Assembly (NCBI GenBank): GCA_023653095.1
Contig: JAMNXP010000003.1
Coordinates: 39,503-103,502, forward strand
Reading direction: 5' to 3'
DNA length: 64,000 bases
DNA from: Bacteroidia bacterium
GTDB lineage: Bacteria > Bacteroidota > Bacteroidia > NS11-12g > UBA955
The first letter of the stretch is position 1. Every line of letters begins with the position of its first letter. The notes beneath the pieces were generated by a model. It was not told where the DNA came from. It worked only from the letters and a program-made list of their open reading frames with translations, and did no database searches. The translations under genes and the position numbers were made by a program. Positions 1 through 19,232 of the stretch are shown here, piece by piece.

Positions 1-843
1 TAAGAATATTGATTCTGCCTCTTGTCTCGTAAAATCTTCATAATCTCCAGGGTGATGTGTCTTCGACGCTAATACATGAGTAGCACTACATACACTATCT
101 ATCCAAGCATATGAACTTTGGGACATACTATTTAGCCAACCGAATGTTGATTCCAAAGGTTTTTGGTTTTTATTCTTTTTAAGATTTCGGTTTAATGCAT
201 CAAGTACATTTCTACAATGTGAAATACACTTATTATAATCTTTTTTATTGAAATAGTCTTCAGCTGTATCAAACTCTTTTTTTATTTTTTGATATTCATC
301 TGTTAATTGATTGTGCGTTTTCGGTATTTCAATAAGACGTATATTATTATAGCCTAAGCTTAGCATTAGGGACTCAACCCAAGTTGATTTGGGTATTTCA
401 ATTTCAATTTGAGAGTCTTGGTTTTGAAGATAATTGGATGACCACAATGTTACATCTGAATTTAAGACTATCCTATTCTTAAGTGCAATTAAAAATTTCA
501 TTTTGATCGTAAATCTCAAACTTGAATGACGTAATTTTTCAATTTGACTGATTACATCCTTAGTTAAATTAAATTTTAAATCTATTCTAAATTTTGAATC
601 ATCAAAATAAGAGTACCCTATATTCTTATTAAATTGAGAACATAACATTTGATTTTCGCCAAATAACAAAGTCGATTCAGAACCCAGAAAATCAATTGAC
701 ATATTTGCCTGTGGAAGTCGAAATTTAACATTAACTGGAATAGTTAAATAAGAATTCAATGCATCCGATGATGCAATAATTTCTTGTTCCTTAACTTCTA
801 TATCTTGAACTTTAGATATTATTGTAAATGAACCTTTACCCAT
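1..843 (-). CDS. hypothetical protein, 3' end cut by window edge (>=281 aa); C-terminal part faintly DUF4145-like (helical, Cys/Arg motif)
   Basis: Absent from the supplied ORF track because it is open at the window edge. I translated the reverse strand from the ATG at 843-841: MGKGSFTIISKVQDIEVKEQEIIASSDALNSYLTIPVNVKFRLPQANMSIDFLG...DYFNKKDYNKCISHCRNVLDALNRNLKK...THHPGDYEDFTRQEAESIFL. That gives 281 sense codons with no stop down to nt 1. The ATG overlaps the TAA of the upstream rhuM-like gene (TAATG). The region is very AT-rich. I recognise no family with confidence. Confidence 0.6.
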   Translation of the reverse strand, partial: MGKGSFTIISKVQDIEVKEQEIIASSDALNSYLTIPVNVKFRLPQANMSIDFLGSESTLLFGENQMLCSQFNKNIGYSYFDDSKFRIDLKFNLTKDVISQIEKLRHSSLRFTIKMKFLIALKNRIVLNSDVTLWSSNYLQNQDSQIEIEIPKSTWVESLMLSLGYNNIRLIEIPKTHNQLTDEYQKIKKEFDTAEDYFNKKDYNKCISHCRNVLDALNRNLKKNKNQKPLESTFGWLNSMSQSSYAWIDSVCSATHVLASKTHHPGDYEDFTRQEAESIFL

Positions 844-1886
844 TATTTTTTCTTCTTATTTGCAGGCGAATTGACATTTGATTCCTTCATTTTTTTGACT
901 TCGTTCTCAAAATCACTTACAAAGTTTTGATCTTGAGATACTCTAAATTTTTCAAACTCTTTCTCCGCTAATCTCATAGCCACATCATGACTTACTTTAC
1001 CTGCATCCCTGAGAATGTTATACTCATTAAATTGAAGGAAAGCATCTAAACGTGTAACCCAATCTGCCATTTTCATCGGGATCTGTCTTTCGGCTTGAAG
1101 TTCAGCAAAATCGAGGTACATGGTAACGATTCGTTCCAGTTCTTTGATTTCCTTTTCCTGTAGGTAATTTTTGGCTGTACCAATATCGGTTTTCAAGATT
1201 TTCCCGTTAGGGGCATTCTTCCATGTGGTTAAGCCCATGTTGGGCTGTGAGGCATCGGCTCGGTCTGCAATCAATTCGGCTGCTGTTTTGCCGGTAATGG
1301 CCCAATGCAGCTTGTTCTGAACCGTTTTAAAGAACTTTTGGGTTATTTCTGCATCCTTGTTATAGTCGATACTGCACTGCTCGTATATGTCGGTTATTTT
1401 GAGGTAGAAACGCCTTTCACTGGCTCTTATCTCCCGGATACGTTCCAAGAGTTCGTCAAAGTAGTCCTTGCCAAAGCGTTTTCCCTGTTTAAGCCTTTCA
1501 TCGTCCAGCACAAACCCCTTGATTATGAACTCCCTAAGGGTTTTAGTAGCCCAAATACGGAACTGGGTAGCCTGATGGCTGTTTACCCTGTAGCCCACGG
1601 CTATTATGGCATCCAGATTGTAAAACTCCACATTCCGCTTTACCATTCGGGTGCCTTCCTGCTGAACTGTTTCCAAAATGGAAATAGTTGCCTTTTCGAC
1701 TAATTCGCCTGTTTGGTAAATATTACTCAGGTGTTTGTTGATAGCAGGAACTTCCACACCAAAGAGTTCTGCCATCCGCTTTTGAGTAAGCCAAAAGGTT
1801 TCGTCATTAAAAATCACCTCAATTTTCACATCACCGGTGGGGGTGTTGTAAAAAATGATGTCGTTATGTTGTGGTGTATCACTCAT
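843..1886 (-). CDS. rhuM: RhuM-family protein (type I R-M-linked 'virulence protein RhuM')
   Basis: 347 aa. The N-terminal pattern IIFYNTPTGDVKIEVIFNDETFWLTQKRMAELFGV...NKHLSNIYQTGEL, then YNLDAIIAVGYRVNSHQATQFRIWATKTLREFIIKGFVLDDERLK, is the characteristic RhuM-family signature as I remember it. It lies 25 nt downstream of hsdR on the same strand. Confidence 0.8.
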   Translation of the reverse strand: MSDTPQHNDIIFYNTPTGDVKIEVIFNDETFWLTQKRMAELFGVEVPAINKHLSNIYQTGELVEKATISILETVQQEGTRMVKRNVEFYNLDAIIAVGYRVNSHQATQFRIWATKTLREFIIKGFVLDDERLKQGKRFGKDYFDELLERIREIRASERRFYLKITDIYEQCSIDYNKDAEITQKFFKTVQNKLHWAITGKTAAELIADRADASQPNMGLTTWKNAPNGKILKTDIGTAKNYLQEKEIKELERIVTMYLDFAELQAERQIPMKMADWVTRLDAFLQFNEYNILRDAGKVSHDVAMRLAEKEFEKFRVSQDQNFVSDFENEVKKMKESNVNSPANKKKK

Positions 1887-1911
1887 TTTAAATTACTTAT
1901 TTTTTTAACGC

Positions 1912-4900
1912 TTACTTATTGGCATTGAACTTCATAAAATCTCTCTGCATTATCTGGAACATGGTTCCGGCAAAGAAATCCCTGAACTCCTTGTTATCAT
2001 TATACTCCTTGAATACCTCGAAATTGGTCTCGATGTGGTCTATTAGTTTCCGCTTTAGTACATCTTCAAATGTAATCCTGGCATTTTGGGTGTCTGAGTG
2101 CTGGAAAGCATTAACAAACTCACTATCATTGGCTACATCTTGCATTAAATCTTCTGTCATTTTCTTCACCTTATCTTCATTGGTAAAGGCAGTACCAAAT
2201 CTGTCGTTAAATGCTTTTACAATGTTAGACAAATACTCCATTTCAGGCTCGGCAACTCCACCTCTCATCTCGGTGGGGATAGGTTTTAATTCATCACCCT
2301 GCTCAAGTGCAATATTGGTGGTTGCCTCTAATTGATATCGAAGGTTCTCCATGTCTATGTTATCCAAAATGCCTTGTGCTAAATCTTCCTCCTTCTGACG
2401 GCCTAACTTATTCTGTAAATGGTTTAAGAATAGGTATAGCCTTTCCAGATATGGGTTGATAAAAGGAACTATTTGAGCAAGGAAAACATAGAGACGAACA
2501 AACGTTTTGCATTTGGCACGGAAATCTTCTTGCTGTTCTTCGTTCAAGTGGCTTCTGAAAACTTCGGCAGCGGCATCCAAAATGCTGTGTAACTGATCAA
2601 CCGGAACATTGGCAATTAGGCGTTGTGAAAACTCCTGCACTTGTTCGGGTGTATAAACCTGAAAAGCATCTAAAGCCGATTGCAGGTCGAATAGTTTATT
2701 AGGGTCTGTTGCCTCACCCAAAATCGTGGTTTCGTAGAATGGGTCGAAAGACTTTTTGATGTCTTCTGCCTTGTTTGCAAAGTCTAATACGAATGTATCT
2801 GTTTTACCAGCCGTGGTTCTGTTCAGTCTTGAAAGGGTTTGAACAGCATTTACACCTCCCAATTTCTTATCAACATACATTGTATGTAATAGTGGCTGGT
2901 CGAACCCTGTTTGATATTTGTTGGCAACAATCAGAAAGCGATACTCTGATTTCTTAAACTCATCTGGTATTGCTGAACTTGAAAAGCCATTCAATGAGGC
3001 TTCGGTTTGCCCGCCTATTTCACCTGAAAATGCAACAATAGCTTTGAAAGGGTTTCCCGTATCTGTAAGATATCTATCGAATGCTTTTTTATACTTAACT
3101 GCATTTTTACGGCTGCTGGTAACCAGCATCGCTTTTGCCAAACCATTTATTTTTTTTCGCTTAATCACCGAATCCATGAAGTGTTCAATCATGATGGCAG
3201 TTTTCTTCTCAATAGCCAGGTCATGGCTTTCTACATAGATGCGTAGTTTCTTTTGTGCCTTTACTTTATCGAACAGTGGATCATCTTCAATGCGTTTGTA
3301 TAACCCATAAAAACTTTGGTAGGTAGTATAATTTTCCAGCACATCCCGAATGAAGTTTTCTTCAATGGCTTGCTTCATTGAGTATAAATGAAACGCCCTG
3401 AATTTTTCTTTACCGTTATCGTTAAACTTCTCACCAAACAATTCCAGTGTTTTGTTTTTAGGAGTGGCAGTAAAGGCGAAGTAGCTGGCATTGGTCAGCA
3501 TCTTCCTACCTTTTACAATATCTACCACCAAATCTTCAGAAGTAAGTTCATCATACTGGTCTTTGTCCACAAAAATGTAATCATCACCATCCACTTGTAC
3601 TTTTTCAAAATCTTTGGCCAGGGTTTCATTGAGCTTACCAGCAGTATTACCACTTTGGCTACTATGTGCTTCATCAATGATGACAGCAAACTTGTTGCCC
3701 GGCAACTCTCCAATTTCATTAACGATGTAGGGAAACTTCTGAATAGTCGTAATAATTATCTTCTTGCCTTCTTCTAAGGCAGTTTTTAGCTGCTTACTAC
3801 CTTCGGTAATGGCTTCTACAACTCCTTTTACCTGCTCAAATTGTTTGATGTTATTCCGTATCTGAGCATCCAGTACTTTGCGGTCGGTAACTACAATGAC
3901 CGTATCAAATACAGTATTGGTATTTGAGTTATCAAATAAACCTACTAACTGGTGAGCCAGCCAGCTGATTGAGTTACTCTTACCTGAACCAGCGGAATGT
4001 TGAATAAGATATCTGCGGCCAGCCCCATTTAGTTTTGCATTTTGCAACAGACTGTTTACTGCTAACAACTGGTGATAACGAGGAAATATGAGTTTCTTGA
4101 CTTTCTCCTTTTTGATTTTACCATCAGGCAATATCTTCTCTACTTCCTCTTCAAACAACTGCACATAATTCTGAATGATATTGGTTATGCTGTCTTTAGT
4201 CAATATTTCCTTCCACAAGTAGTCAGTTTTAATGCCCGATGAATTGGGGGGATTACCTGCTCCATTATTATGTCCTTTATTGAAGGGCAGAAAATATGTG
4301 CTGCCATTTTTTAAGTGAGTGGTCATCCAAACCTGCTCTGTATCTACGGCAAAGTGCACCATGCATCTGCCGAGGCGAAACAGTTCTTCTTTGCTATCTC
4401 TGGTTGTTTTGTATTGTTTGATAGCATCTTTTACATTCTGCTTGGTAAGCTCATTTTTTAATTCAAAAGTGATGATGGGTAAGCCATTGATGAAAATAAC
4501 CATATCGAGGCTATTTTCATTTTGTGTGCTGTAATGCACCTGTCGGATTACAGAGAATATATTCTTATTGTAAAGTTCAGTGTCTTGCTGGTTGAGGTTA
4601 GAAACGGGTTTATCATAAAACAATTTCAGCTTTATATTATTGTCAGTAATTCCTTTACGCAAAACCTCGATAATGCCCAGCAATTTGATTTGACTATTGA
4701 GGCGGTACAACACTTTAATTCTGTAATTGCTGCCATGGATGGCCTGCAATTTTTGAACTGCTTTCTCCTGTGTTGCTTCAAAAAAACCGAAAAGCATTTC
4801 TTCATCGACACACTCTACACGATTGTACTGGGCATGATGGCGAAGTTGAAATGAATTACCGGCAATCGTATCGCAGAGATACGCTGCAATAAGCGCTTCT

Positions 4901-4929
4901 AATCCTTTTTCTGATGTATCTGTTTTCAT
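1912..4929 (-). CDS. hsdR: type I restriction endonuclease subunit R
   Basis: 1005 aa. PD-(D/E)xK-like segment DMVIFINGLPIITFELKN. SF2 helicase motifs HSAGSGKSNS (Walker A), VIIDEAHSSQSG (DEAH), FAFTATP and QTGFDQP. Same strand and operon as hsdM/hsdS. Confidence 0.9.
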   Translation of the reverse strand: MKTDTSEKGLEALIAAYLCDTIAGNSFQLRHHAQYNRVECVDEEMLFGFFEATQEKAVQKLQAIHGSNYRIKVLYRLNSQIKLLGIIEVLRKGITDNNIKLKLFYDKPVSNLNQQDTELYNKNIFSVIRQVHYSTQNENSLDMVIFINGLPIITFELKNELTKQNVKDAIKQYKTTRDSKEELFRLGRCMVHFAVDTEQVWMTTHLKNGSTYFLPFNKGHNNGAGNPPNSSGIKTDYLWKEILTKDSITNIIQNYVQLFEEEVEKILPDGKIKKEKVKKLIFPRYHQLLAVNSLLQNAKLNGAGRRYLIQHSAGSGKSNSISWLAHQLVGLFDNSNTNTVFDTVIVVTDRKVLDAQIRNNIKQFEQVKGVVEAITEGSKQLKTALEEGKKIIITTIQKFPYIVNEIGELPGNKFAVIIDEAHSSQSGNTAGKLNETLAKDFEKVQVDGDDYIFVDKDQYDELTSEDLVVDIVKGRKMLTNASYFAFTATPKNKTLELFGEKFNDNGKEKFRAFHLYSMKQAIEENFIRDVLENYTTYQSFYGLYKRIEDDPLFDKVKAQKKLRIYVESHDLAIEKKTAIMIEHFMDSVIKRKKINGLAKAMLVTSSRKNAVKYKKAFDRYLTDTGNPFKAIVAFSGEIGGQTEASLNGFSSSAIPDEFKKSEYRFLIVANKYQTGFDQPLLHTMYVDKKLGGVNAVQTLSRLNRTTAGKTDTFVLDFANKAEDIKKSFDPFYETTILGEATDPNKLFDLQSALDAFQVYTPEQVQEFSQRLIANVPVDQLHSILDAAAEVFRSHLNEEQQEDFRAKCKTFVRLYVFLAQIVPFINPYLERLYLFLNHLQNKLGRQKEEDLAQGILDNIDMENLRYQLEATTNIALEQGDELKPIPTEMRGGVAEPEMEYLSNIVKAFNDRFGTAFTNEDKVKKMTEDLMQDVANDSEFVNAFQHSDTQNARITFEDVLKRKLIDHIETNFEVFKEYNDNKEFRDFFAGTMFQIMQRDFMKFNANK

Positions 4930-4932
4930 TAC

Positions 4933-7680
4933 TTAAAAGTCATATTTTGTTTTACGCATCTCAAAGGCAATAACACCACCTTCCATAATGTCTTTTACTT
5001 GCAATTTGATTTCATCCTTATCAATTGAACCACTACCAATAATCTCACCTGCGGATTTATCAGAATTATGGTCAAATGTTAGGATTAACTCTGCATCACC
5101 ATTTACTGCAATATTTGCATTATGACTACTGAATATGAGCTGTCGCTTATGTTTAGCCGAAACAATATTCTCGGTTATCTGGTGAATAACTTTGTTATCA
5201 AGATCATCCTCAGGCTGGTCAATAATTAAGGGGCCAAATTCCTGATTTAACAGTATCGTTAGGATTGAACCAGCTTGCTGACCATAAGAGGCATCTTCAA
5301 ACGGAATTTTATTTGAAGGGTCTTTACAATAAAGAAGTTTTAAATCATAAGTAGGAAGTTCCAACGCAAAGTCAATTATGTCTGATGTATTCAGACTTTC
5401 ATTAATTCTTTCAAAATCAGTTTCAAGAAGTGAGGCATTTTGCAAGCCATACTCTGAAATTATGTTTTCGATTTTTAGATTTTCAGTTTGAGCCTTGTAA
5501 ATTGAGAACCACAACTTCAACAGTTCTTTATAGGTATTTTCTCCCTTTAAGAGAGTCTGGAAAAACGATTGTGTCCTTGCTGGCTGGCCTTTACTTCCAG
5601 TAACTTTAGCTAAGAAATCTTTAATAATATGCTCTATATCATCTAACGGTGTTAACTCAATTTCAAGAGAACCTTCGCTTTTACTGCATATTTCAGATAC
5701 TGCACTGTTAATTAAAGTGTGCAAACTTATATTTAATTGATGCCTCTGGTAAAACAGCTTCTGCAAATTCCGTCTAACACCCTTTTCAGATTCCAAAGTT
5801 TCAAGTATCCTGTTCCTATCCTCAATCAAAACAGCCAAACGTTTTCTGAGTTCTTCAAGTTCCTTTATTATCTGCTCAAACTTTGTCTGTCTGCCTTTTG
5901 CTTCAACATACTCAGCATCATGTATACCATGCAAATCAGTTAATAGGGTCTTATCAGCAACTAAATCTGAAGAACTTGTCTTGCTTCGTGCATCCTCCAA
6001 TGCGGCTTTTATATTTTTAACTATCTCGTCATGGCTGGCAGCAAACTTTTTAATCTCCGCTATATTCTTCACATTATTTGCATCAAATTGTAACCCGTTG
6101 AAATTTCCATTTGTAAGGATATTACCTATCTGATTAAAGAGTGCTGCAATCTGAGCTTCAGAAGATTTTATTATCAATTTTTCGTTAGCAACAAGACTAT
6201 TGTTTTTGATTATTGTTTGGTCGCCTGAAGGAACATCAGACAATTGCTCATTCAAGGAATTAATTTGTTCCTCAATTGATTCAATTTGTGTCCTTAAATC
6301 TTCTGACGATTTTAGATTAGAAAGATAGGTTTCATAAGAAGCAGCTACTTCCTTAATCCTGTTGCCATTTTCGTTGATCTGTCTTTTTATTGATTCAACA
6401 CCACTATTTACAGCATTCTCAATGATCCTTGTAAGTTGTACCGTCTTGTCTTTCTCATGTTTACTAAGTTCTTTTTGTGCAAATGAATCTGCACGAATAA
6501 TTGAAACAACATTTTGACTATTGGTTGGCTGCCAGTCTTCATTGCCAATCTTTATTTTGTAAGAATTAATTGACCGCCTGATGATATGGGTGGTACCAGT
6601 TTTAATAATTACAACTTCAACGCTACCCGTGCCCAGTGTATTACTAATAAACGTCTCAAGGTCTGCTTTCTTCTCCTCATTACTGTCTTTACCCAAAGCC
6701 CATGAAATATATTGGAGCAAAGAAGACTTTCCTGTTCCTCTACCTCCAATACACACATTAAACTGAGGGTTAAATTTAATTTCTAAGTCTTTCAAGAAGC
6801 TGCTGCCCGATATTATCACTTCACTAATTCTGGTGGATGGTAACTTTGGCTCTTCCTGTAAAATTCTGGACTTTTTTGCCAGGCAGGCTTGCCGTAAACC
6901 TTCTGCAGTTGGTGTTGACCATTTTACCCAGGTGGCAGAAAAACCTAAATGTTCAAATGTATCTGTTCTATTGTCTGATGTTTGAAAAAAACCAATTGAT
7001 CTGTTTCCATAAGCAGGAACTTTACCTTCAATGATATTATTCCATCCTTCCTTCTTTTTGTGCTTTACATAAAGTTCCCTGTCTAAATAGCCACCCACGA
7101 AAATCCCTTTGGCATATTCGTTATAAAAGTTTTCACGGAAAATTGAATCACTTCCACCGTCTTTGATATTCGGAAACACTATAAAGCGACCTTTGAGGTC
7201 TTTTACACCGTTTAGAGCATCATAGACATCATTGATGCTTTTAAACGACAGCCTATTAGTTTGCCCTGTTTTTGACTCTGATTTACTTGTGTAACCTGAA
7301 ATTCCAAGTGCGGTATAGATTTTTATTCTCGTTTCATCATCTATTACTAAATCAGCGTCAAAAATCAAAAGAGCCTGACAGGGAACATCAAGCGTCAATT
7401 CCATTCCCGGGAAGACAACTATTCGTTCATGCTCAGGTATTGGATGTCCATGTACGTCCTTATCATTATTGCTAGCTTCTTTGATGTAATTGTAAAAACA
7501 CAAATCGTGGTGATCTGTAATTGCTACCGCATCAATTCTTTTTTCTCTACAAGCCTTAATAAACCGCTCTGAATAAGCAATTCTTTCGGCATCAGAAACA
7601 TAAGCCTGCCCAGAGAACTGAAGGTCTCTCGGGGTGTGAACCTGAAAGTCACATTTATAATATCTTGCACCTTTGTCCAT
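4933..7680 (-). CDS. PHP-domain phosphoesterase fused to an SMC/Rad50-like ABC ATPase (TrlF/Ppl-like)
   Basis: 915 aa. PHP motifs at the N-terminus: CDFQVHTPRD, AVAITDHHD, FPGMELT. Walker A GGRGTGKSSLL (aa ~312-321). A long helical, coiled-coil-like middle (aa ~420-760). Signature-like SYGQQAG, Walker B LIIDQPEDDLD (aa ~818-828) and H-loop FSSHNANI. The start abuts the hsdS stop (7680/7681) and the stop is 3 nt from the hsdR start. Confidence 0.75.
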   Translation of the reverse strand: MDKGARYYKCDFQVHTPRDLQFSGQAYVSDAERIAYSERFIKACREKRIDAVAITDHHDLCFYNYIKEASNNDKDVHGHPIPEHERIVVFPGMELTLDVPCQALLIFDADLVIDDETRIKIYTALGISGYTSKSESKTGQTNRLSFKSINDVYDALNGVKDLKGRFIVFPNIKDGGSDSIFRENFYNEYAKGIFVGGYLDRELYVKHKKKEGWNNIIEGKVPAYGNRSIGFFQTSDNRTDTFEHLGFSATWVKWSTPTAEGLRQACLAKKSRILQEEPKLPSTRISEVIISGSSFLKDLEIKFNPQFNVCIGGRGTGKSSLLQYISWALGKDSNEEKKADLETFISNTLGTGSVEVVIIKTGTTHIIRRSINSYKIKIGNEDWQPTNSQNVVSIIRADSFAQKELSKHEKDKTVQLTRIIENAVNSGVESIKRQINENGNRIKEVAASYETYLSNLKSSEDLRTQIESIEEQINSLNEQLSDVPSGDQTIIKNNSLVANEKLIIKSSEAQIAALFNQIGNILTNGNFNGLQFDANNVKNIAEIKKFAASHDEIVKNIKAALEDARSKTSSSDLVADKTLLTDLHGIHDAEYVEAKGRQTKFEQIIKELEELRKRLAVLIEDRNRILETLESEKGVRRNLQKLFYQRHQLNISLHTLINSAVSEICSKSEGSLEIELTPLDDIEHIIKDFLAKVTGSKGQPARTQSFFQTLLKGENTYKELLKLWFSIYKAQTENLKIENIISEYGLQNASLLETDFERINESLNTSDIIDFALELPTYDLKLLYCKDPSNKIPFEDASYGQQAGSILTILLNQEFGPLIIDQPEDDLDNKVIHQITENIVSAKHKRQLIFSSHNANIAVNGDAELILTFDHNSDKSAGEIIGSGSIDKDEIKLQVKDIMEGGVIAFEMRKTKYDF

Positions 7681-8985
7681 TTAAACTGTTTTTCTTTTTC
7701 CCATCACCGCTTCGGCTATCATCGCTTCTTTATGTTCTCTGATTAATTCAATTTCACGTTCGGCTTTAGCTATTGCTGTGTCTATGGAGGCGGTTTCGGT
7801 TCTTATGTGTGATACAATTATTTTTTGTTCATCGATTGGTGGAATTGTCAAAAATATTTTTCGAAAATCACCTTTACCTATGTTTGGCTGACCAGTCTCT
7901 CGAACATGATAATTGATTTGTTTTTGAATAAATGGGGAACTCAATTGTAAATACAAATAATCCTTGTCGAGTTCTTCTGGCTCTAATGGGATGAAATTAC
8001 CAACACGGTAATTTTGCAATAGAATTTCATCCTTAATATCTGCACGGATAATCTTTCCAATTGTCCCACCTGTAAGAGCCATTAAAATGTCACCTTCATT
8101 TATAATTATGTCACGAAACTCATCTATTCTACTTTCATCAATTGTATTAGCTTTCGTCAAGTCCAAATAACCATTGGGATTGAGCTGAGTTATCTTAACA
8201 ATTTTGACACCTTCATCTGTAAAGTCATAATCTCTAAACTGAAATCCATGCCTTAGAAAAACGTATTTGTTGAACTTTTCAATTTTATAGTGAATGGGAA
8301 ACTTTTCAGCAAAAGGAATTTCAGAGTTTTTAAATGATACTTTATCATTCAAGCCATTTGTTATGATTTTGTAAATCATTGAAAACTTCTGCTCCTTCAA
8401 CAGCTCTATAAACCGTTGTTTCTTTTCAATAAAGCGGTTTACCTTTTCCTCTTGTGCTTTGATGTATTGCACAATTTCGTCTTGCTCGGTTTTGGGCGGC
8501 ACTAAGGCAAAAATGCTGAAAAACTTATCGGAGTATAGTCGTAAACGGCTGTCAATAATACCAGTGCTGTGTCTTCGGAACTCAGCTTTAAATAATGCGG
8601 TAGTAAACAAATAGCCAAAATATTCCGGGTTATTGTCACCCTTCACACGATACACACAATAGGCAGGGCTGGTAATTCCGTTGTGTGGCGAAATGCCCAT
8701 ACTCCCATTCCACGCCAGCATAATGTTTACTACCAAATCACCCGTTTCTACCATCTTATAACCTACAAGGCTTTCGGCATTGGTTAAATGCTCATCATCA
8801 CTTTCCAGACTTTCTCTCTTGAGGGTAACTCCAGTATAATGTGAAACAGAAAGTAGTTCTTCACTACCTGTTTCACTTCGGTTATCTACCTCCTGAAACA
8901 GATTTTTAATGCGAAGCACCTGCCAGTGTGAGGGGAAATCACCCAGCCAAGCTATCTTTTTTTTGTTTACTGCCGCTGCTGTCAT
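7681..8985 (-). CDS. hsdS: type I restriction-modification specificity subunit S
   Basis: 434 aa with two target-recognition halves. Each half is followed by a conserved helical spacer (..EQDEIVQYIKAQEEKVNRFIEKKQRFIELLKEQK.. and ..DEQKIIVSHIRTETASIDTAIAKAEREIELIREHKEAMI..), which is typical of HsdS. Confidence 0.85.
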   Translation of the reverse strand: MTAAAVNKKKIAWLGDFPSHWQVLRIKNLFQEVDNRSETGSEELLSVSHYTGVTLKRESLESDDEHLTNAESLVGYKMVETGDLVVNIMLAWNGSMGISPHNGITSPAYCVYRVKGDNNPEYFGYLFTTALFKAEFRRHSTGIIDSRLRLYSDKFFSIFALVPPKTEQDEIVQYIKAQEEKVNRFIEKKQRFIELLKEQKFSMIYKIITNGLNDKVSFKNSEIPFAEKFPIHYKIEKFNKYVFLRHGFQFRDYDFTDEGVKIVKITQLNPNGYLDLTKANTIDESRIDEFRDIIINEGDILMALTGGTIGKIIRADIKDEILLQNYRVGNFIPLEPEELDKDYLYLQLSSPFIQKQINYHVRETGQPNIGKGDFRKIFLTIPPIDEQKIIVSHIRTETASIDTAIAKAEREIELIREHKEAMIAEAVMGKRKTV

Positions 8986-8990
8986 AACTT

Positions 8991-9704
8991 CTAAATTGTA
9001 TCAACGGGATCGTCTTGATTTCGGTGAATAGGATTGTTATTAACATTAAAGCATTCTTTTGATGCCTTAAATTGTTTTACTAATGCAGCTCTTACCTCTG
9101 GCATTGCATTGAATACATTGTACCACACACTCCAGAATCCTGAATCACCTGCCTGACCAATAATTCCGTTTAAAGTTGCTTGTCGTGGCACACTTGTATA
9201 TTCGGCATACCTTTCTAAAGCCTGACTAATTGCCTTTAATCTGTATTCAAATCTAGTATCAACACCACCAGAACTGTTTACTTTTTTGTCTAAACCATAC
9301 AAGGCTATTGTTGCATTAGCTTTAACTGGCTGATTCGCTGTTAATTTAGAAGAAGGCACCAAAACTCCCGATAGGTGCTCAAAAACAATTAAAGTATTTT
9401 GTTTATGAGGCCAGTAATAGTTGTGCAGTTTTATATCTAGATTACCCTTAGTGCTATTACAATAGTGACAAATTAATAACAAATTGCTCCATTCATTTCG
9501 AAGGTTTTCATACTTATTTTTATTTCCATAACACTCTTTCGGTTTAATATGCTCAACAGCTGGAACATTCAAAATTGGCATTTCACAAAAATGGCAGTAA
9601 CGACAGGTCTGCCTTATCAAGTATGGCTTTGCCTCACCCCAGTGATCGAATTGAATTTTTTTTCCTGCTTTATTTACAGGTTGTTTTTTAGTAATTGGCC
9701 TCAT
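8991..9704 (-). CDS. HNH endonuclease, PtuB/TIGR02646-like
   Basis: 237 aa. Cys-rich HNH core CRYCHFCE...VEHIKPK...NLLLICHYCNSTKGN. Its start overlaps the stop of the upstream ATPase by 4 nt (ATGA). Confidence 0.7.
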   Translation of the reverse strand: MRPITKKQPVNKAGKKIQFDHWGEAKPYLIRQTCRYCHFCEMPILNVPAVEHIKPKECYGNKNKYENLRNEWSNLLLICHYCNSTKGNLDIKLHNYYWPHKQNTLIVFEHLSGVLVPSSKLTANQPVKANATIALYGLDKKVNSSGGVDTRFEYRLKAISQALERYAEYTSVPRQATLNGIIGQAGDSGFWSVWYNVFNAMPEVRAALVKQFKASKECFNVNNNPIHRNQDDPVDTI

Positions 9705-11029
9705 TTCTCATTAACCTTTTTTACTTCCAAATATGCTTTATAAACAGGATCTGTTGTGTCCTGAACAAGTATTCCATCGACTATTTGTTTTAGTACTAAA
9801 TAGTCGTTTTGGCCAATCTCACCAGGTTTCTTTGCTAATTGCTCAAGAACACGTAAAGCTATCATATGCCTGTCTTGAAAATCATCGCTATTAATATTCT
9901 TAACTCCCATAATATCAGTAGCGACTTTGTTAAGTGGTTGATCAACAGGGTTAATATCAGGATGCAATTCGTCAAGATTAATTAATTCTTCCTGTTTCAA
10001 ACTCTGAACAATAAAAGGTGAATGAGTTGTTACTACAAACTGCATTTTAGGGAAAGTCGCTTTCAAATCTTTAATAACATGCCGCTGCCATGTGGGATGC
10101 AAATGCATGTCTAATTCATCAATCAAAACCACGCCAGGGCTTTTCACAACTGCATCATAACCCAACTTTCCATTCAACATGATGCAGCGGTAAGCAATTT
10201 CTGCCACCATGTTCAACATAGCCTTCATACCATCGCTTAGCATAGAGGCAATCTTTCTTTCAACCGGCTGCCCGTCATTAAAATCTACCAATACTTCAAA
10301 CTCATCATACTTTGAGTTGTATTCGATTTCTTTTATGTAGGGTATGGCGGTTGTAATGGCATCATACATAGCTTGTATTGTGCCCTCAAATTCTACTTCA
10401 TCTTTTACCTTCTTTTCGTAACTGTATAGCCATTCATACACACCTGTGAAATCAACACTATCTCCTAGTGCAGTGTAATACCCTTTCTCCAAACGAGACA
10501 TCCTACGCCACTTTTTATCAACCCTTCTTACCTGTGCATTGGTTCGATTAATATAGAAATTAGCTAATACTGGATATAGCACATTCTTTTTAGTTGAATG
10601 ATTGTCAAACAAATAATTAGCATAGCGAATAATGTCAGCAGAATGCTCTTTTTTATGAGTAGTGGCATTACTTGGGAGATAGTGTCTTTCCCAACGAAAC
10701 GGTTCTGGTATTTCATCAACTACATCGTTATGATACCATTTAGCGGCAACAATTAAAGACGGATTTTCTTTGTTGGGCAGATAGTCTTTTCTTTCGGGGT
10801 AATATTTTACAAACCGTTCTCCTTTCTTAAACTGCCTTCTGTAAATATAGTTTGCAGGCAATGTAGGCATAGATTGTAAGAAAGCACCTAAACCCACTTG
10901 CAATGCATTGAGCAAGGTTGATTTACCAAGTCCATTATTACCTATGGCCACAGTAAACCTCTCCTTGAACTCGAAAGACTTTTCTTCAAAGCCCTTAAAG
11001 TTTTTTAAGTGTATGTGTGTTATCAGCAT
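9701..11029 (-). CDS. ABC-type AAA ATPase, PtuA-like (AAA_15/21-like)
   Basis: 442 aa. N-terminal LKNFKGF, Walker A GNNGLGKSTLLNAL, Walker B VVLIDELDMHLHP and VVTTHSPFIV. One nt separates it from the hsdM stop. Confidence 0.7.
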   Translation of the reverse strand: MLITHIHLKNFKGFEEKSFEFKERFTVAIGNNGLGKSTLLNALQVGLGAFLQSMPTLPANYIYRRQFKKGERFVKYYPERKDYLPNKENPSLIVAAKWYHNDVVDEIPEPFRWERHYLPSNATTHKKEHSADIIRYANYLFDNHSTKKNVLYPVLANFYINRTNAQVRRVDKKWRRMSRLEKGYYTALGDSVDFTGVYEWLYSYEKKVKDEVEFEGTIQAMYDAITTAIPYIKEIEYNSKYDEFEVLVDFNDGQPVERKIASMLSDGMKAMLNMVAEIAYRCIMLNGKLGYDAVVKSPGVVLIDELDMHLHPTWQRHVIKDLKATFPKMQFVVTTHSPFIVQSLKQEELINLDELHPDINPVDQPLNKVATDIMGVKNINSDDFQDRHMIALRVLEQLAKKPGEIGQNDYLVLKQIVDGILVQDTTDPVYKAYLEVKKVNEK

Positions 11030-11030
11030 C

Positions 11031-12815
11031 TTATTCGATTATTTCTTTTAATAGCCCCTCTGTTTCTTCCTCAATAGCCAGAATATCTTTTGCGATTTCA
11101 TCTAAAGGTCTTGGGGGCTGGTGTTTATAGAAGTATTTAGCAAAATTGATTTCATAACCCACCTTGTTATCCTTTTCATCCCACCATGCATCAGGAGCAA
11201 AAGGCAATACTTCTCTTTCAAAAAATTCCTGAATGTCTTCTTTTAAAGGAATGTTCTCTGTGTCCTTCAATTTGCTATCTGCCTTTGGCTTTCCTTTACT
11301 TGCATAAATGATATTGCCGTTTTCATCTCTTTCCGGACGGTTCACATTAATTTGTGTGTAGCCAAAATCCTCGTTATCGAAAATTTTACTGTATTCATTT
11401 TCCTCAAAGTCGAGGTACATTTTTTCAATTACCGGTATATGACTTTCTGAAAATTCAACCCTCTTTTTGCCCAAAGGCTTCCGCATTTTAGTGTAGAACT
11501 TTTCAGATGTAGCATTAATCAGCTGAACCTTTCCTATACGGTGTTTTGCCTTTCTATTGGTGATTATGAAAATGTAAGTGGGAATACCCGTATTGTAGAA
11601 CATATCATTAGGCAATGCTATGATGGCTTCCAATAAATCATTTGAAATGATATGCTTTCTGATTTCGCTTTCGCCTTGTCCTGCATCACCAGTAAATAAG
11701 GCTGAACCATTGTGAACTGAAGCAATACGACTGCCGAGTTCGGTATCCTTCATTTTACTGAGCATGTGTAATACAAACATCAACTGACCATCATTAACCC
11801 GACTGGTTACAGCTTCATTCTTATAGCAGCCATTCAGGATAAAACGCTTATCAATGATCTTTCCTTTTTCGCCCACTCCTAGGGCTTTCTTATCGGGAGC
11901 CCACGTTTTGCCATAAGGCGGGTTTGTGAGCATGAAATCGAACTTCAAATCAGAAGGAAAACCGTATGTACTTAATGTACTGCCATAGGCAATTTTGTTT
12001 GGGTCTTCCCCTTTTATCAGCATATCGCTTTTGCAGGTAGCGTATATAAAGGGAGTGCTTTCCTGACCGTATAAATGAACTGTTGCGTTACTTCTAATTG
12101 GACCTTCAGGATTCAACATGAAGTTCTTTGCGATTGTGAGCATACCACCAGAACCAACGCAAGGGTCGTAAAGCAAATATGTACCTTGTTTGATTTGATC
12201 TTTTACGGGAACAAAAACAAGATGCGTCATTAAATCGATGATTTCCCTTGGTGTAAAGTGTTCTCCGGCTTCTTCGTTATTTTCTTCATTAAAACGCCTT
12301 ACTAAATCTTCATAAACATAACCCATAGCTAATGGGGGTAGCTTATCTGGATGTAGTTCAACTTTGGGAGAACAAAACTTTTCGATTAAAGAGAATAGAA
12401 TTTGAGCTTCTTCAAGTGTTTCTATTTCATTTCTGAACTTAAACTTATTGATAATGTCCTGTACATTATCTGAAAAGCCGTTGAGGTAGTTTTCAAAATT
12501 AGAACGCAAGTTTTTTGGATCTTGCATTAACTTCTTTAATGTAAATGGCGAGGTGTTATAAAAGGCCAGTCCTGAACCATGCTTGCTGTTCGTTAACAAT
12601 GAATCAAGATTTTGCAGCTTGTCCTTATACTCCGAAAATGTTTTAAGAACCTGGTCTTTCGTTGGCTCTAATAGTAAGTCTAATCTGCGAATAACAATCA
12701 TTGGCAGAATAACATCTTTGTATTTACCCTTCTGATAGGTATTAACTAAAACATCATCAGCAACCGTCCAGAGAAAGTTAATAATTGGTTGAAGTGATTG
12801 TGTATTTAAAGCCAT
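11031..12815 (-). CDS. hsdM: type I R-M N6-adenine DNA methyltransferase subunit M
   Basis: 594 aa. SAM-binding motif DPCVGSGGML and catalytic motif LTNPPYGKTW (NPPY). Confidence 0.9.
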   Translation of the reverse strand: MALNTQSLQPIINFLWTVADDVLVNTYQKGKYKDVILPMIVIRRLDLLLEPTKDQVLKTFSEYKDKLQNLDSLLTNSKHGSGLAFYNTSPFTLKKLMQDPKNLRSNFENYLNGFSDNVQDIINKFKFRNEIETLEEAQILFSLIEKFCSPKVELHPDKLPPLAMGYVYEDLVRRFNEENNEEAGEHFTPREIIDLMTHLVFVPVKDQIKQGTYLLYDPCVGSGGMLTIAKNFMLNPEGPIRSNATVHLYGQESTPFIYATCKSDMLIKGEDPNKIAYGSTLSTYGFPSDLKFDFMLTNPPYGKTWAPDKKALGVGEKGKIIDKRFILNGCYKNEAVTSRVNDGQLMFVLHMLSKMKDTELGSRIASVHNGSALFTGDAGQGESEIRKHIISNDLLEAIIALPNDMFYNTGIPTYIFIITNRKAKHRIGKVQLINATSEKFYTKMRKPLGKKRVEFSESHIPVIEKMYLDFEENEYSKIFDNEDFGYTQINVNRPERDENGNIIYASKGKPKADSKLKDTENIPLKEDIQEFFEREVLPFAPDAWWDEKDNKVGYEINFAKYFYKHQPPRPLDEIAKDILAIEEETEGLLKEIIE

Positions 12816-13298: not shown

Positions 13299-14045
13299 TC
13301 AACTGAAAAAATCGGAATCTCCGAGATTATCTAGGAATTCTATGGAATCATCATCGTATGCGTAGGAAACCATGAATTCATCTTCATCCTCGTCATCATC
13401 TACGTTGTCATTTGCGGTATCGAGGGCTTTGTTAAACATGTCCATGAGCGATTTGAAATAATAATGCCCTAGATGAGAATCGGTATCAATACCATAGACT
13501 GCCATGTGCTCTTGGACTTGCTCCCAAAGTTTGCTTAGCGTCTTGTAGCTGCGTTTGAAGGCTGCCAGATCCATTTCAATTTCTTCGTAATCAAACTCAG
13601 ACAGTAACGCACGTTCTTTCTCAATCCATACTTTTAGGCCATGGTTGATTTTGCGTTCTTCAATTTGCTGTTGACGTGCAATGGCGTCCTTTTCCAAATG
13701 CTTCAGCTCTAACTCTCGCTTGCGGAGTTCAAGCTCTTTGTCCTGTTGTGCAAGCTTGCGCAATTCGAGCTCGTGCTCCAATTGCAATTTCTTCAAAGCG
13801 ATTTCACGCTCTAATCGGTTGAGGTCGTTGTGGTTTTCCATTTTATTATAGTTTTTAGTTTGATGATTGGGCATGTTGGCTTTGGCAATAAGGTCAATGG
13901 GCAAGGAATTGCCTCCATTGCCTGATTGGCCATTAAGCCAACGAAATACCTGGCTCTTGCTTACATTGAGCTCAGAAGCAATTTGCCTTATGCTGTAGCC
14001 CTTCTTTTGTAGCTCTTGGGCTTGGTGTATTAAATTTTGATTCAT
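13299..14045 (-). CDS. HTH domain / coiled-coil protein of the integrative element
   Basis: 248 aa. N-terminal HTH (KGYSIRQIASELNVSKSQVFRWLNG), a Glu/Lys/Leu-rich coiled coil with near-repeats (LELRKLAQQDKELELRKRELELKHLEK) and an acidic tail. Confidence 0.5.
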   Translation of the reverse strand: MNQNLIHQAQELQKKGYSIRQIASELNVSKSQVFRWLNGQSGNGGNSLPIDLIAKANMPNHQTKNYNKMENHNDLNRLEREIALKKLQLEHELELRKLAQQDKELELRKRELELKHLEKDAIARQQQIEERKINHGLKVWIEKERALLSEFDYEEIEMDLAAFKRSYKTLSKLWEQVQEHMAVYGIDTDSHLGHYYFKSLMDMFNKALDTANDNVDDDEDEDEFMVSYAYDDDSIEFLDNLGDSDFFS

Positions 14046-14071: not shown

Positions 14072-15466
14072 TCAATTGCTCATTGGCTCATCGTCACAAT
14101 TCTGAGCACCTTTTTTCTGATACTTTCCATGACCAATGCGTTCAAAGGCATCACTAGACAAATACCTGGTGAGGGTTGCTAATGATATTTCTAAACCCTC
14201 CCCGATTTCATTGGCTTCTTTCCTGGTAAAAGTATCGGGGAGCATTTCAATCATAAACTGGAGTTTTCGGTATTTGATAATATCGTTATTCACCCCCGGC
14301 ATTTCTGCCATGTGTTTAGCACTGTTGCTTATTAAATGCTTTGCTAAACTCATTGCCACATTGAAATCGGACTGGTTTAATTGAATGGAGTGTGAGGGAT
14401 TTACTCTTTGATCAATAAACAATCTCAGACATGACAACACCATTGTAATGCGATAGCAAATCAGTCCTGTGCGATGCAAGGATGCCAAAATTCGATCACC
14501 TGTATCATTAAAATAAGATTCTAACAATGCCGCAAACTTGTTTTGAAATTCTACCTGTAATGACTTCTCAAGATGACACTCTAAAGGTGTCCCAAGCCTG
14601 TTTAATAACTCGTAAAGGATAAATATCTGCTGTCCCAATTGCATGAATTCCTGTCCCGGTATTGTCCCACGGCGCTCAAACACATCCCTGAATTTTGGGA
14701 CACTACGCATGGAATAGTACATGAAACGACTAAATAATCCATTCTCTGCATCAGGAATCAATCGTTTCAACTGTCCTTGTGTCCCGGTAAGAAAAACTGT
14801 GAGCTTGGGCGATTCCAAAGAAATATATTCCTTGTTTGTCTTGCGCTGAATCTCCACCGTTTCATGATGAAACGCACACCGTAAAACATCACTAAAATTT
14901 CCCCAATCTTGCGATAATGAATTACTCAGCGTATCGGCCTCTGTGCTAAATAATATTCCAGCCCCGTTATTCTCAGATAACGTATGAAGAAATGAGCTGG
15001 CGCTATTATTGGCAGGAATCAATAACATTTTACAAGGTGGCGGTGGCACAAATCCTTCCTGAGTATCCTTTTCCTTTCTCTTGGCACTCATTTTCAATTC
15101 ATATTCCTGCTGTAGAATTTTAGATTCATCTCGCTTGGCTTTATGAATCGGCGCAGCTAAATACCGGACAAAATTCAGAATGCCTTTTCCTGCACCTGCG
15201 GGCGCATCAATAAAGGCGAATAAATTTGGGTACACTATGCGATTATCATAAATGCCATAAACATTGGGCAAGCATCCCGATAGTATGGTAATCGCTCCTA
15301 ATAGAATTACATCACGCTCTTGTTTATTAGATGCTACAATAAAAAGAGGCTGTAAACACTCAGGAATCATTTCAAATACGGAATCATCGAAATTCAATTC
15401 CGTATCTTCAGCTGCACCAGGAACCCAAAAAATTTCTTCTGTTTGTGGTTCTTGCTTTGAGTTCAT
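14072..15466 (-). CDS. DUF3987-like protein (P-loop, integrative-element replication/maintenance)
   Basis: 464 aa with the P-loop-like motif IDAPAGAGKGIL. Its position after int/xis genes is typical of DUF3987 proteins of Bacteroidota integrative elements. This assignment is from memory. It has a 4-nt overlap with the upstream HTH gene. Confidence 0.55.
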   Translation of the reverse strand: MNSKQEPQTEEIFWVPGAAEDTELNFDDSVFEMIPECLQPLFIVASNKQERDVILLGAITILSGCLPNVYGIYDNRIVYPNLFAFIDAPAGAGKGILNFVRYLAAPIHKAKRDESKILQQEYELKMSAKRKEKDTQEGFVPPPPCKMLLIPANNSASSFLHTLSENNGAGILFSTEADTLSNSLSQDWGNFSDVLRCAFHHETVEIQRKTNKEYISLESPKLTVFLTGTQGQLKRLIPDAENGLFSRFMYYSMRSVPKFRDVFERRGTIPGQEFMQLGQQIFILYELLNRLGTPLECHLEKSLQVEFQNKFAALLESYFNDTGDRILASLHRTGLICYRITMVLSCLRLFIDQRVNPSHSIQLNQSDFNVAMSLAKHLISNSAKHMAEMPGVNNDIIKYRKLQFMIEMLPDTFTRKEANEIGEGLEISLATLTRYLSSDAFERIGHGKYQKKGAQNCDDEPMSN

Positions 15467-16067: not shown

Positions 16068-17210
16068 CTATTGTTGTTCATTCTTGTCAGGTTTGATACC
16101 CAATTGAATACTCTGCATCGCTTTGGTTTTCGTTGTATCCATCACCTTACCATAAATCTGTGTGGTATGAATATGTTTGTGTCCTAAGAGTTTTGAAACG
16201 GTATAGATATCAGTTCCTTCCGCTAGTTGTAACGTAGCAAATGTGTGTCGGAAATTATGAAAGGTAATCTTCTTACGAATACCAGCCTTTTGCAACCACC
16301 GATTCAAATTCGCATAGTCGCGTTGGAAATTGTAATCACCGAATATGCGTTCTGCATTCTCTTCATAATGGCCCAACAAACTCAATGCTTCATCAGATAT
16401 AGGCAGTGTCTCCATGCCTTTTGTTTTACTCTGTGTAAAGCGAATGAAATAGCCTAAGTTTTCGGAGTGTTGTATTTGTTCACCTCGAAGTTTCACCACA
16501 TCCCCCAAACGTAAACCTGTGAGAGCAGAAAACATACAAGTACGTTTCATCAAATCAGAATCAACAGGTGTATTGTAAAGTTTTATCAATTCTTCTTTGG
16601 TTAAAAACTCTCTATAAGTTTCCGGTTGTTGAATGCCTTTCACGGCATCAAAAGGATTACTAATCATATGACCATATACCATTGATTCCCGAACCGTTGC
16701 TCTGAGCTTGTTGAAATATGTGTAACACGAATTTTGAGAGATACGCATTTTGGGTGAATTGATACGCGTAGCTTTTTTCTCTAAAAACTCTTTGTACTCA
16801 TTGATGAACTGTGGAGTGATGTCGCCGAAATTACATTGACCCTTACAAAACTGAACAAAGGTTTTATATGATGCAACCCAACCACCATGTGTATTGGGAT
16901 TGCCAATCCATTTGTTCATTTGCTTTTCATAGAATGGCAGGAAGTCATCAAACTGTGAACTACGTTTGATACCGAACTTCCCTGCTAAGCGATCCAGTTG
17001 ACGATTGGCAGCAATAGATCGAGCCAAGGTTTCAATATCTCGGTTGTGACGTTTCTCCATCTCATCCCTCGGGGGACTGTAGAGATACATATTGAGGTAT
17101 TCCCACCGGGTTAATTTGCCACTTTCGGGATGGATAATTGGTGGGCAGTGATCTAGGTAAAGGCTGATCCGGCCTGTCTTTAAAAGACGCTTTCGAAGTG
17201 TAACTCTCAT
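16068..17210 (-). CDS. tyrosine-type site-specific recombinase/integrase
   Basis: 380 aa. C-terminal catalytic motifs LTGLRLGDV (Arg), HNFRHTFATLQL (H-x-x-R) and LLGHKHIHTTQIYGKV (His...Tyr). Confidence 0.9.
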   Translation of the reverse strand: MRVTLRKRLLKTGRISLYLDHCPPIIHPESGKLTRWEYLNMYLYSPPRDEMEKRHNRDIETLARSIAANRQLDRLAGKFGIKRSSQFDDFLPFYEKQMNKWIGNPNTHGGWVASYKTFVQFCKGQCNFGDITPQFINEYKEFLEKKATRINSPKMRISQNSCYTYFNKLRATVRESMVYGHMISNPFDAVKGIQQPETYREFLTKEELIKLYNTPVDSDLMKRTCMFSALTGLRLGDVVKLRGEQIQHSENLGYFIRFTQSKTKGMETLPISDEALSLLGHYEENAERIFGDYNFQRDYANLNRWLQKAGIRKKITFHNFRHTFATLQLAEGTDIYTVSKLLGHKHIHTTQIYGKVMDTTKTKAMQSIQLGIKPDKNEQQ

Positions 17211-19193: not shown

Positions 19194-19232
19194 ATTGCAA
19201 AAATACAAGGAAAATATTACTAACTTAGCCGC

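Follow-up and report, generated by a model that had tools for sequence, protein, structure and literature searches.

RhuM proteins are among the commonest gene products nested in type I restriction-modification (R-M) loci and in defence islands. The family has been proposed as a toxin domain that acts with R-M systems and is often fused to DOC (PMC3710099), it is enriched beside invertible hsdS genes (PMC9881135), and it is common to islands inserted at trmE/mnmE (PMC7449626). RhuM is also the PADLOC candidate system PDC-S05, one cloned representative of which, carrying the Virulence_RhuM domain, was reported to reduce plating about 1000-fold for T7 and T5 and about 10-fold for T4 in E. coli B (bioRxiv 10.1101/2024.09.26.614923), which makes the statement of an earlier note on this DNA, that RhuM has no defined function, outdated. 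The present analysis concerns the gene that directly follows rhuM on the minus strand at the left edge of a 64,000-nucleotide (nt) stretch of a Bacteroidia bacterium (contig JAMNXP010000003.1, positions 39,503 to 103,502; hereafter the window, meaning the whole stretch), a gene that we call X. With a confidence that falls a little short of even, we read X as an accessory gene of defence islands that acts autonomously and came to lie behind rhuM by capture; it may cooperate with RhuM but would not be an obligate antitoxin or sensor of it.

The rhuM gene occupies positions 843-1886 on the minus strand (347 amino acids (aa) plus stop) and terminates in TAATG: plus-strand positions 841-845 read CATTA, which is TAATG on the coding strand, and the rhuM stop (845-843) and the ATG of X (843-841) share one base. 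The X frame runs from 843 to 1 for 281 codons with zero stops, the remaining five frames of the same 843 nt contain 18-37 stops, at the strand composition a run of 281 open codons has a chance of about 9e-12, and the longest open run over 1000 shuffles was 156 codons. The earlier note had described this frame of at least 281 codons opening in the TAATG that ends rhuM, and the translation, the frame count, and the chance estimate bear it out; the list of open reading frames (ORFs) does omit X, as had been supposed, because the frame runs off the window. The G+C counts made by hand in that note were all exact (11/60 at 541-600, 22/60 at 1-60, and 38/60 at 19501-19560), and the G+C content is 29.3% in the X ORF, 41.7% in rhuM, and 40.1% in the whole window.

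The full gene was recovered, as had been suggested, from a public contig (L037) that matches the reverse complement of window positions 1-1410 with 0 mismatches. On this contig the X frame runs for 20 further codons (...VVLGLINFIAHEREKYELFL) to a TAA 63 nt past the window edge, and a convergent 191-aa ORF ends 12 nt beyond the X stop. Positions 1-843 therefore hold codons 1-281 of 301 on the minus strand; window base 1 cuts off the remaining 20 codons and the stop. Because the contig carries the frame to its TAA and has a convergent ORF there, X is uninterrupted and is the last gene of its operon; the frame is intact to 301 aa, contrary to the concern that it might prove to be a pseudogene just past the window. 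All nine homologous clusters at 54-95% identity to X are 296-300 aa long, and P0281 (301 aa), the second member of the 90%-identity cluster of the best hit P0001, equals the window translation over residues 1-281. The ratio of nonsynonymous to synonymous substitution rates (dN/dS) is 0.11-0.29 in all pairs among seven X orthologues. X is thus a real, complete gene under purifying selection, and its product is a cytoplasmic 301-aa protein.

The junction spans 841..862 (minus strand): the TAA of rhuM and the ATG of X overlap there, and the Lys codons that close rhuM, rich in A, immediately precede that ATG. The junction ...AAGAA(A/G)AAAAATAATGGG is kept in every locus with a close relative of X, the junction sequence AAGAAAAAGAAATAATGGG is conserved throughout these loci, and one of them (L008), in which the rhuM core is lost, still retains GAAATAATGG at the same place. 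Since the RhuM tail is Lys-rich and the junction conserved, an A-rich stretch comes to stand just ahead of the X start, and in Bacteroidota translation initiation favours A-rich leaders over Shine-Dalgarno sites. On these features of the nucleotide sequence, X is predicted to be translationally coupled to rhuM through the TAATG overlap, a coupling that the earlier note had proposed and that its conservation in the close loci supports. In locus L014 (1140-1170) the A-rich tract at the end of rhuM is one base shorter, giving a RhuM tail of ...KKRRNNG and an overlap with X of 8 nt, not 1 nt. Scans of the locus for sigma-70 promoters and terminators scored at or below shuffle expectation, and a search of RNA runs returned a single metatranscriptome containing merely 5% of the sequence words and hence no transcription evidence.

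Searches of Pfam, NCBIfam, PADLOC, and PHROGs returned no match for X, which, together with the dN/dS values, agrees with the original description of a genuine ORF of no recognised family. A profile search of 1.84 billion cluster representatives recovered 509 X-family proteins at a threshold of E<=1e-3 and 162 at the stricter E<=1e-10; with few exceptions they are 290-320 aa long and aligned over their full length; a second protein search with a broad X alignment gave 12 matches, and a genome collection searched with a profile built on a 26-sequence X alignment placed the family in seven genome records, six of which are labelled Bacteroidota. PADLOC v2.0 contains 0 families for X, and among 127 relatives it produced solely isolated matches at E>=0.0017. 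No X relatives were found on viral contigs in IMG/VR, the best E in PHROGs being 0.036. The NCBIfam family STM4504/CBY_0614 gave weak matches in 5 of the 127 relatives (best E 4e-4), and a search of the literature on that family found nothing useful. Judged by its aligned members, the X family is real and as yet unnamed, its proteins being about 300 aa long.

Every close relative of X (>=54% identity) has rhuM or a rhuM remnant directly upstream, in at least six different neighbourhoods. In the window, hsdR precedes a full-length rhuM and X. Full-length rhuM genes also stand ahead of X behind a methyltransferase-S-AAA-FokI-like nuclease system (L001, L015, and L023), behind mnmE (L006 and L022), and in L014, where the contig extends just 115 nt upstream and holds no gene. 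In L009-L013 rhuM is cut by the contig end, and a convergent Abi_alpha gene lies downstream. Two loci carry an intact X beside independently truncated rhuM genes: in L005, behind a BpuSI-like gene, Dcm, and GmrSD, an N-terminal deletion has reduced rhuM to aa 263-342, and in L008, behind AbiEi_2, a C-terminal deletion leaves a 104-aa ORF equal to RhuM aa 1-90 (57% identity). Because the pair or its remnant is kept in at least six unrelated neighbourhoods, we conclude that rhuM-X moves as a cassette in the close clade. Two further observations concern rhuM in these loci. The rhuM-X pair of L006 stands directly after mnmE, and the RhuM N-domain ORF of L008 (1770-2084) is stand-alone, has no Pfam match, and ends 50 nt ahead of the intact X homologue; the RhuM N-terminal domain may occur as a protein of its own, because PADLOC also holds PDC-S05 models of 80-110 aa.

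None of the ten contexts with X relatives at 28-41% identity carries rhuM. In these, the neighbours of X are an AAA ATPase and an S8 peptidase, with X starting 18 nt after the peptidase gene (L016 and L032); a convergent hsdR fragment (L017); a divergent HEPN-NTase and Ser/Thr kinase (L018); a response regulator and era (L019); a DUF4209 protein upstream and an ApeA-HEPN gene 32 nt downstream (L020); BatD, TPR, and DUF4236 proteins (L021); a 1042-aa ORF without a Pfam match 6 nt upstream (L027); SIR2, PDDEXK, Fic, and a type IV coupling protein (L030); RmuC, DUF4236, and PLD proteins (L034); and an unassigned 259-aa ORF 7 nt downstream, with a tyrosine integrase nearby (L038). The co-occurrence of the two families, which the earlier note had proposed to check across genomes, therefore holds for close relatives, always found behind rhuM or its remnant, and fails for distant ones: rhuM and X are co-transferred within one clade, and outside that clade the two families are independent. 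Among the distant homologues, closely spaced same-strand partners (6-32 nt) were seen in L016 (2503-6915), L027 (39-4076), L020 (6001-8210), and L038 (2939-4643), and DUF4236 proteins lie convergently downstream of two distant homologues on unrelated contigs (L021, 7686-8258; L034, 6714-8099), so that an association of DUF4236 with X may be recurrent.

By tblastn and sliding identity, the 3' part of rhuM (aa 263-347; 846..1100, minus strand) travels with X, its G+C falling from about 0.46 to about 0.3, and across loci the C-terminal 60-85 aa of RhuM are the portion that accompanies X. G+C and identity are mosaic, at about 0.46 G+C in the rhuM core vs about 0.28 in X. Loci whose RhuM proteins share 83-93% identity share 70-76% in X, and the two orderings are incongruent: relative to the window, L001 is 91.9% identical in RhuM but 69.8% in X, and L006 is 84.4% in RhuM and 74.4% in X. 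We take the rhuM and X partners to have been reshuffled because of these incongruent identities. Of 20 indexed public sequencing runs, 17 hold about a quarter of the sequence words of window 1-1886, and the other three hold fractions of 0.43-0.99; one run of the former kind, an ant metagenome, yielded a 1200-nt contig, which matches window 1030-1871 at 96.6% identity (29 differences in 842 nt), diverges past 1030, and carries no X. The rhuM core (1030-1871) has the look of an anchor for recombination that many loci share. Assembly of the source groundwater metagenome is interrupted within rhuM at a 44-nt link contig (1381-1424) with a depth of 121.8 vs about 65, a doubling that suggests a second copy; the 64-kb window itself contains no second copy of rhuM or X.

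We read X as autonomous because its distant relatives occur without rhuM, several of them beside other conflict genes (AAA and S8 peptidase, ApeA-HEPN, HEPN-NTase, SIR2/PDDEXK/Fic, PLD, and integrase), the rhuM core occurs without X, one cloned RhuM-domain candidate reportedly defends, and X stays intact beside truncated rhuM. Several points weigh against this. Linkage to rhuM is unbroken from 54% to 95% identity and across at least six neighbourhoods, which could itself be the mark of selection on a functional pair; each truncated rhuM gene is known from a single metagenome assembly, and its truncation could have arisen by recent decay; the defence link of the wider family is anecdotal, with about six of the ten distant contexts fitting it (a raw count with no background statistic) and L019 and L021 looking like housekeeping settings; and the active site proposed below follows from helix topology alone, in a model whose H263-H264 loop has a predicted local distance difference test (pLDDT) score below 50.

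The first of these points leads to the best-surviving alternative, which we nevertheless regard as rather unlikely: that within the close clade RhuM and X form a true two-gene module, in which X would regulate or neutralise RhuM or give it trigger specificity, for example by docking the C-terminal tail of RhuM, and in which coupling would set the stoichiometry. The 1-nt overlap and the junction conserved in all close loci would suit such a module, as would the retention of the pair or its remnant across unrelated neighbourhoods, the co-travelling C-terminal end of RhuM, and the proposal that RhuM is a toxin domain (PMC3710099). However, the rhuM core is widespread without X, and the one cloned RhuM-domain PDC-S05 candidate is reported to defend. 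To these are added the same observations that favour autonomy, namely the absence of rhuM from all ten distant contexts, the persistence of X beside N-terminally (L005) or C-terminally (L008) deleted rhuM, and the reshuffled partners; moreover, X has no DNA-binding or antitoxin-like domain in Pfam. The module proposed in the earlier note survives as a coupled cassette of the close clade, and its further suggestion of a sensor/effector or toxin/antitoxin-like pair is unsupported in the sense of an obligate pair.

The structure predicted for X has two domains, and each member of the family is taken to share this layout of an immunoglobulin-like beta-sandwich and a four-helix bundle. An AlphaFold2 model built on the 127-sequence alignment (pLDDT 88.6, predicted TM-score (pTM) 0.73) has a beta-sandwich at residues 2-150 with flanking helices at 95-104 and 152-163, then a linker, then four long antiparallel helices. 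In the model, the N-terminal domain (about aa 1-165; 349..843, minus strand) consists of the beta-sandwich and two short helices and forms a block with pLDDT 93-98, and the C-terminal domain (aa 178 to the window edge; 1..312, minus strand) is a four-helix bundle with helices at 182-199, 203-226, 232-261, and 273-297. The stretch DYFNKKDYNKCISHCRNVLDALNRNL, quoted by the earlier note as a helical C-terminal stretch, is indeed helical and corresponds to residues 196-221; it is the helical hairpin that opens the C-terminal domain and does not reach the C terminus of the 301-aa protein.

Residues conserved across the family (127 sequences) are E102, R105, S153, W155, E172, P174, A194, D202, Y203, C210, R211, W236, H263, H264, and R273. 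In the N-domain the conserved codons are those of E102 (538-540), R105 (529-531), S153 (385-387), and the invariant W155 (379-381); in the C-domain C210-R211 (211-216), H263-H264 (52-57), and R273 (25-27) are near-invariant, and D202-Y203 (235-240) is also conserved. From the up-down topology of the predicted helices, D202/Y203, C210/R211, H263/H264, and R273 should share one end of the bundle; it is in the H263-H264 loop that the model is least certain.

Foldseek searches of PDB and BFVD gave weak, generic immunoglobulin-like matches for the N-domain (TM-score <=0.49; Af_0446, the TMEM106B lumenal domain, LEA-2, and ApaG) and nothing for the helical domain or the whole protein, the matches listed being dominated by the N-terminal domain. 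A sequence-profile search of PDB with X returned TPR hairpins alone, aligned to residues 190-230. Residues ~190-225 (AE.YF..GDYdkAv.hCR.aLe) do fit the TPR consensus, as in TPR_1, DUF3856, PDB entry 2hr2, and designed CTPR proteins; unlike TPR repeat arrays, X has a single hairpin inside a four-helix bundle.

Under the reading of X as a captured autonomous gene, the course of events would be as follows. The X gene would have been captured directly behind rhuM in one clade of its family and translated by TAATG coupling, the A-rich Lys codons ending rhuM probably doubling as the X leader, and the cassette consisting of the rhuM 3' end and X would have spread between islands via recombination within the conserved rhuM core. 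In the protein, the beta-sandwich may serve as a binding or sensing module, and the functional site would lie at the end of the bundle where the conserved residues named above converge by the predicted topology, a site that could bind metal or serve as a catalytic Cys/His/Arg site. Such a layout of N-terminal sensor and C-terminal helical effector would be analogous to that of single-gene abortive-infection proteins such as RAZR.

A bolder extension, which we consider unlikely, is that the X family is an undescribed modular class of defence proteins that combines a beta-sandwich sensor with a new Cys/Arg/His helical effector or switch and acts alone or as a plug-in partner of varied effectors, for which RhuM, the AAA and S8 peptidase pair of L016, the ApeA-HEPN protein of L020, the 1042-aa protein of L027, and the 259-aa protein of L038 are candidates. 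If this were true, X would be a first experimental handle on the triggering of RhuM loci.

Less probable again is that the C-terminal domain is a divergent RNase of the HEPN/DUF4145 type, with X as an abortive-infection RNase. The idea goes back to the hint in the earlier note that the helical stretch recalls DUF4145, a HEPN family occurring in R-M contexts (PMC3710099) whose domain in RAZR is an active RNase (PMC13017515), and it draws on the up-down four-helix bundle of the model, on the conserved Arg and His residues of the family, and on sub-threshold Pfam matches among the 127 relatives, namely PF05168 (HEPN) in 7 (best E 2.2e-5), DUF7014 in 9, and DUF4145 in 5 (best E 0.01). The same survey gave DUF3856 in 8 and TPR_1 in 32, and the TPR-like match accounts for the weak HEPN and DUF matches and is itself no pointer to function. 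Against the RNase reading, X and nine close relatives have no DUF4145 (PF13643) or HEPN match even at E<=10, and searches of X against HEPN hidden Markov models in both directions were not significant (E>=0.07). An hhalign comparison of the X C-domain (127 sequences) with an alignment of about 100 NTase-HEPN sequences, which represents one HEPN subfamily, gave a probability of 1.9% over 34 columns that cover the first hairpin only, a hairpin that fits TPR repeats too. The HEPN Rx4-6H motif is not conserved in the X family, in which the conserved residues are C210-R211 and H263-H264-x8-R273 and no Arg has a conserved His 4-6 positions after it, and no HEPN structure was among the matches listed by Foldseek, which mostly cover the X N-terminal domain. 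The DUF4145 hint is thus not confirmed, and the resemblance is to be treated as a lead, neither as family membership nor as an established mechanism.

That X is passenger cargo without a defence role, for instance a regulatory or structural protein that is linked to rhuM and moves with it during recombination, is similarly improbable, for although two distant homologues lie among housekeeping genes (L019 and L021), X matches no enzymatic or defence family, and the cassette is mosaic and lower in G+C, X is under purifying selection in all lineages, is recurrently placed in integrative elements and beside conflict genes, and is joined by a precise, conserved translational coupling to a defence operon. 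If X did prove inert or unrelated to defence, the finding would shrink to an unannotated hypothetical gene ending an island.

In the window, the operon reads hsdM-ptuA-ptuB-hsdS-ppl-hsdR-rhuM-X, eight genes of which X comes last. According to the ORF list, Pfam, and PADLOC, the operon comprises hsdM (11031-12815), the Septu genes ptuA (9701-11029) and ptuB (8991-9704), hsdS (7681-8985), a gene for a Ppl-like PHP+AAA protein (4933-7680), hsdR (1912-4929), rhuM (843-1886), and X (1-843); the genes are co-directional and overlap or are spaced by at most 25 nt, and all genes of window 1-12815 lie on the minus strand. The RhuM protein matches PF13310 at E 6.9e-117 over residues 66-320 and the PDC-S05 model PDLC04871 at E 3.4e-158 over residues 7-339, and an exact look-up of the window RhuM protein returned no record. 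As an observation apart, the Septu pair and the Ppl-like gene are nested among hsdM, hsdS, and hsdR in one co-directional operon (1912-12815). Upstream of the operon are genes for an HTH (helix-turn-helix) protein (13299-14045), a DUF3987 protein (14072-15466), and a tyrosine integrase with an Arm-DNA-bind_5 domain (16068-17210), followed by mnmE (17829-19259), which adjoins the island; because these four lie upstream, we take the operon to be cargo, carried by an integrative island that sits next to mnmE. When the 3' region of mnmE was compared with the 10 kb to the left of the window, no att-like direct repeat of >=13 nt turned up. To the left of window base 1, the public contig (L037, 1486-4240) carries the 191-aa ORF, which has a weak DUF6088 match, a 195-aa ORF without assignment, and a HipBA-like module (HipA_C, Couple_hipA, and HTH). 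Because this HipBA-like toxin-antitoxin module lies beyond X, the variable island extends past the window edge.

What is new here is a RhuM/PDC-S05 locus to which a coupled gene of a hitherto undescribed family has been added. A coupled RhuM neighbour from an unnamed family of more than 500 clusters is a concrete handle, with W155, C210, R211, H263, H264, and R273 as near-invariant positions, and the locus shows how defence cargo is exchanged, with a conserved rhuM core as recombination anchor and variable 3' cassettes swapped onto it.

Among the described systems that come close, RAZR (PD-T7-4) is a single-gene abortive-infection protein in which an N-terminal zinc finger precedes a C-terminal DUF4145/HEPN RNase: both it and X have a small, non-enzymatic N-terminal module followed by a helical domain with conserved Arg and His in a defence-island setting, but X has a beta-sandwich in place of the zinc ribbon and shows no significant DUF4145/HEPN match and no Rx4-6H. 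Like the genes of type II toxin-antitoxin systems, rhuM and X are adjacent and overlapping in the same operon, and RhuM is a proposed toxin domain; unlike those systems, the distributions of rhuM and X are mutually independent, X lacks an antitoxin-type DNA-binding domain, and each survives without the other. Relative to RhuM/PDC-S05 itself, the window RhuM is full length, and its gene takes the place where rhuM is classically found, behind hsdR within a type I R-M operon. The definition of PDC-S05 covers one gene, whereas here and in eight other protein clusters a gene of an unnamed family, with no similarity to RhuM, is coupled to the rhuM 3' end.

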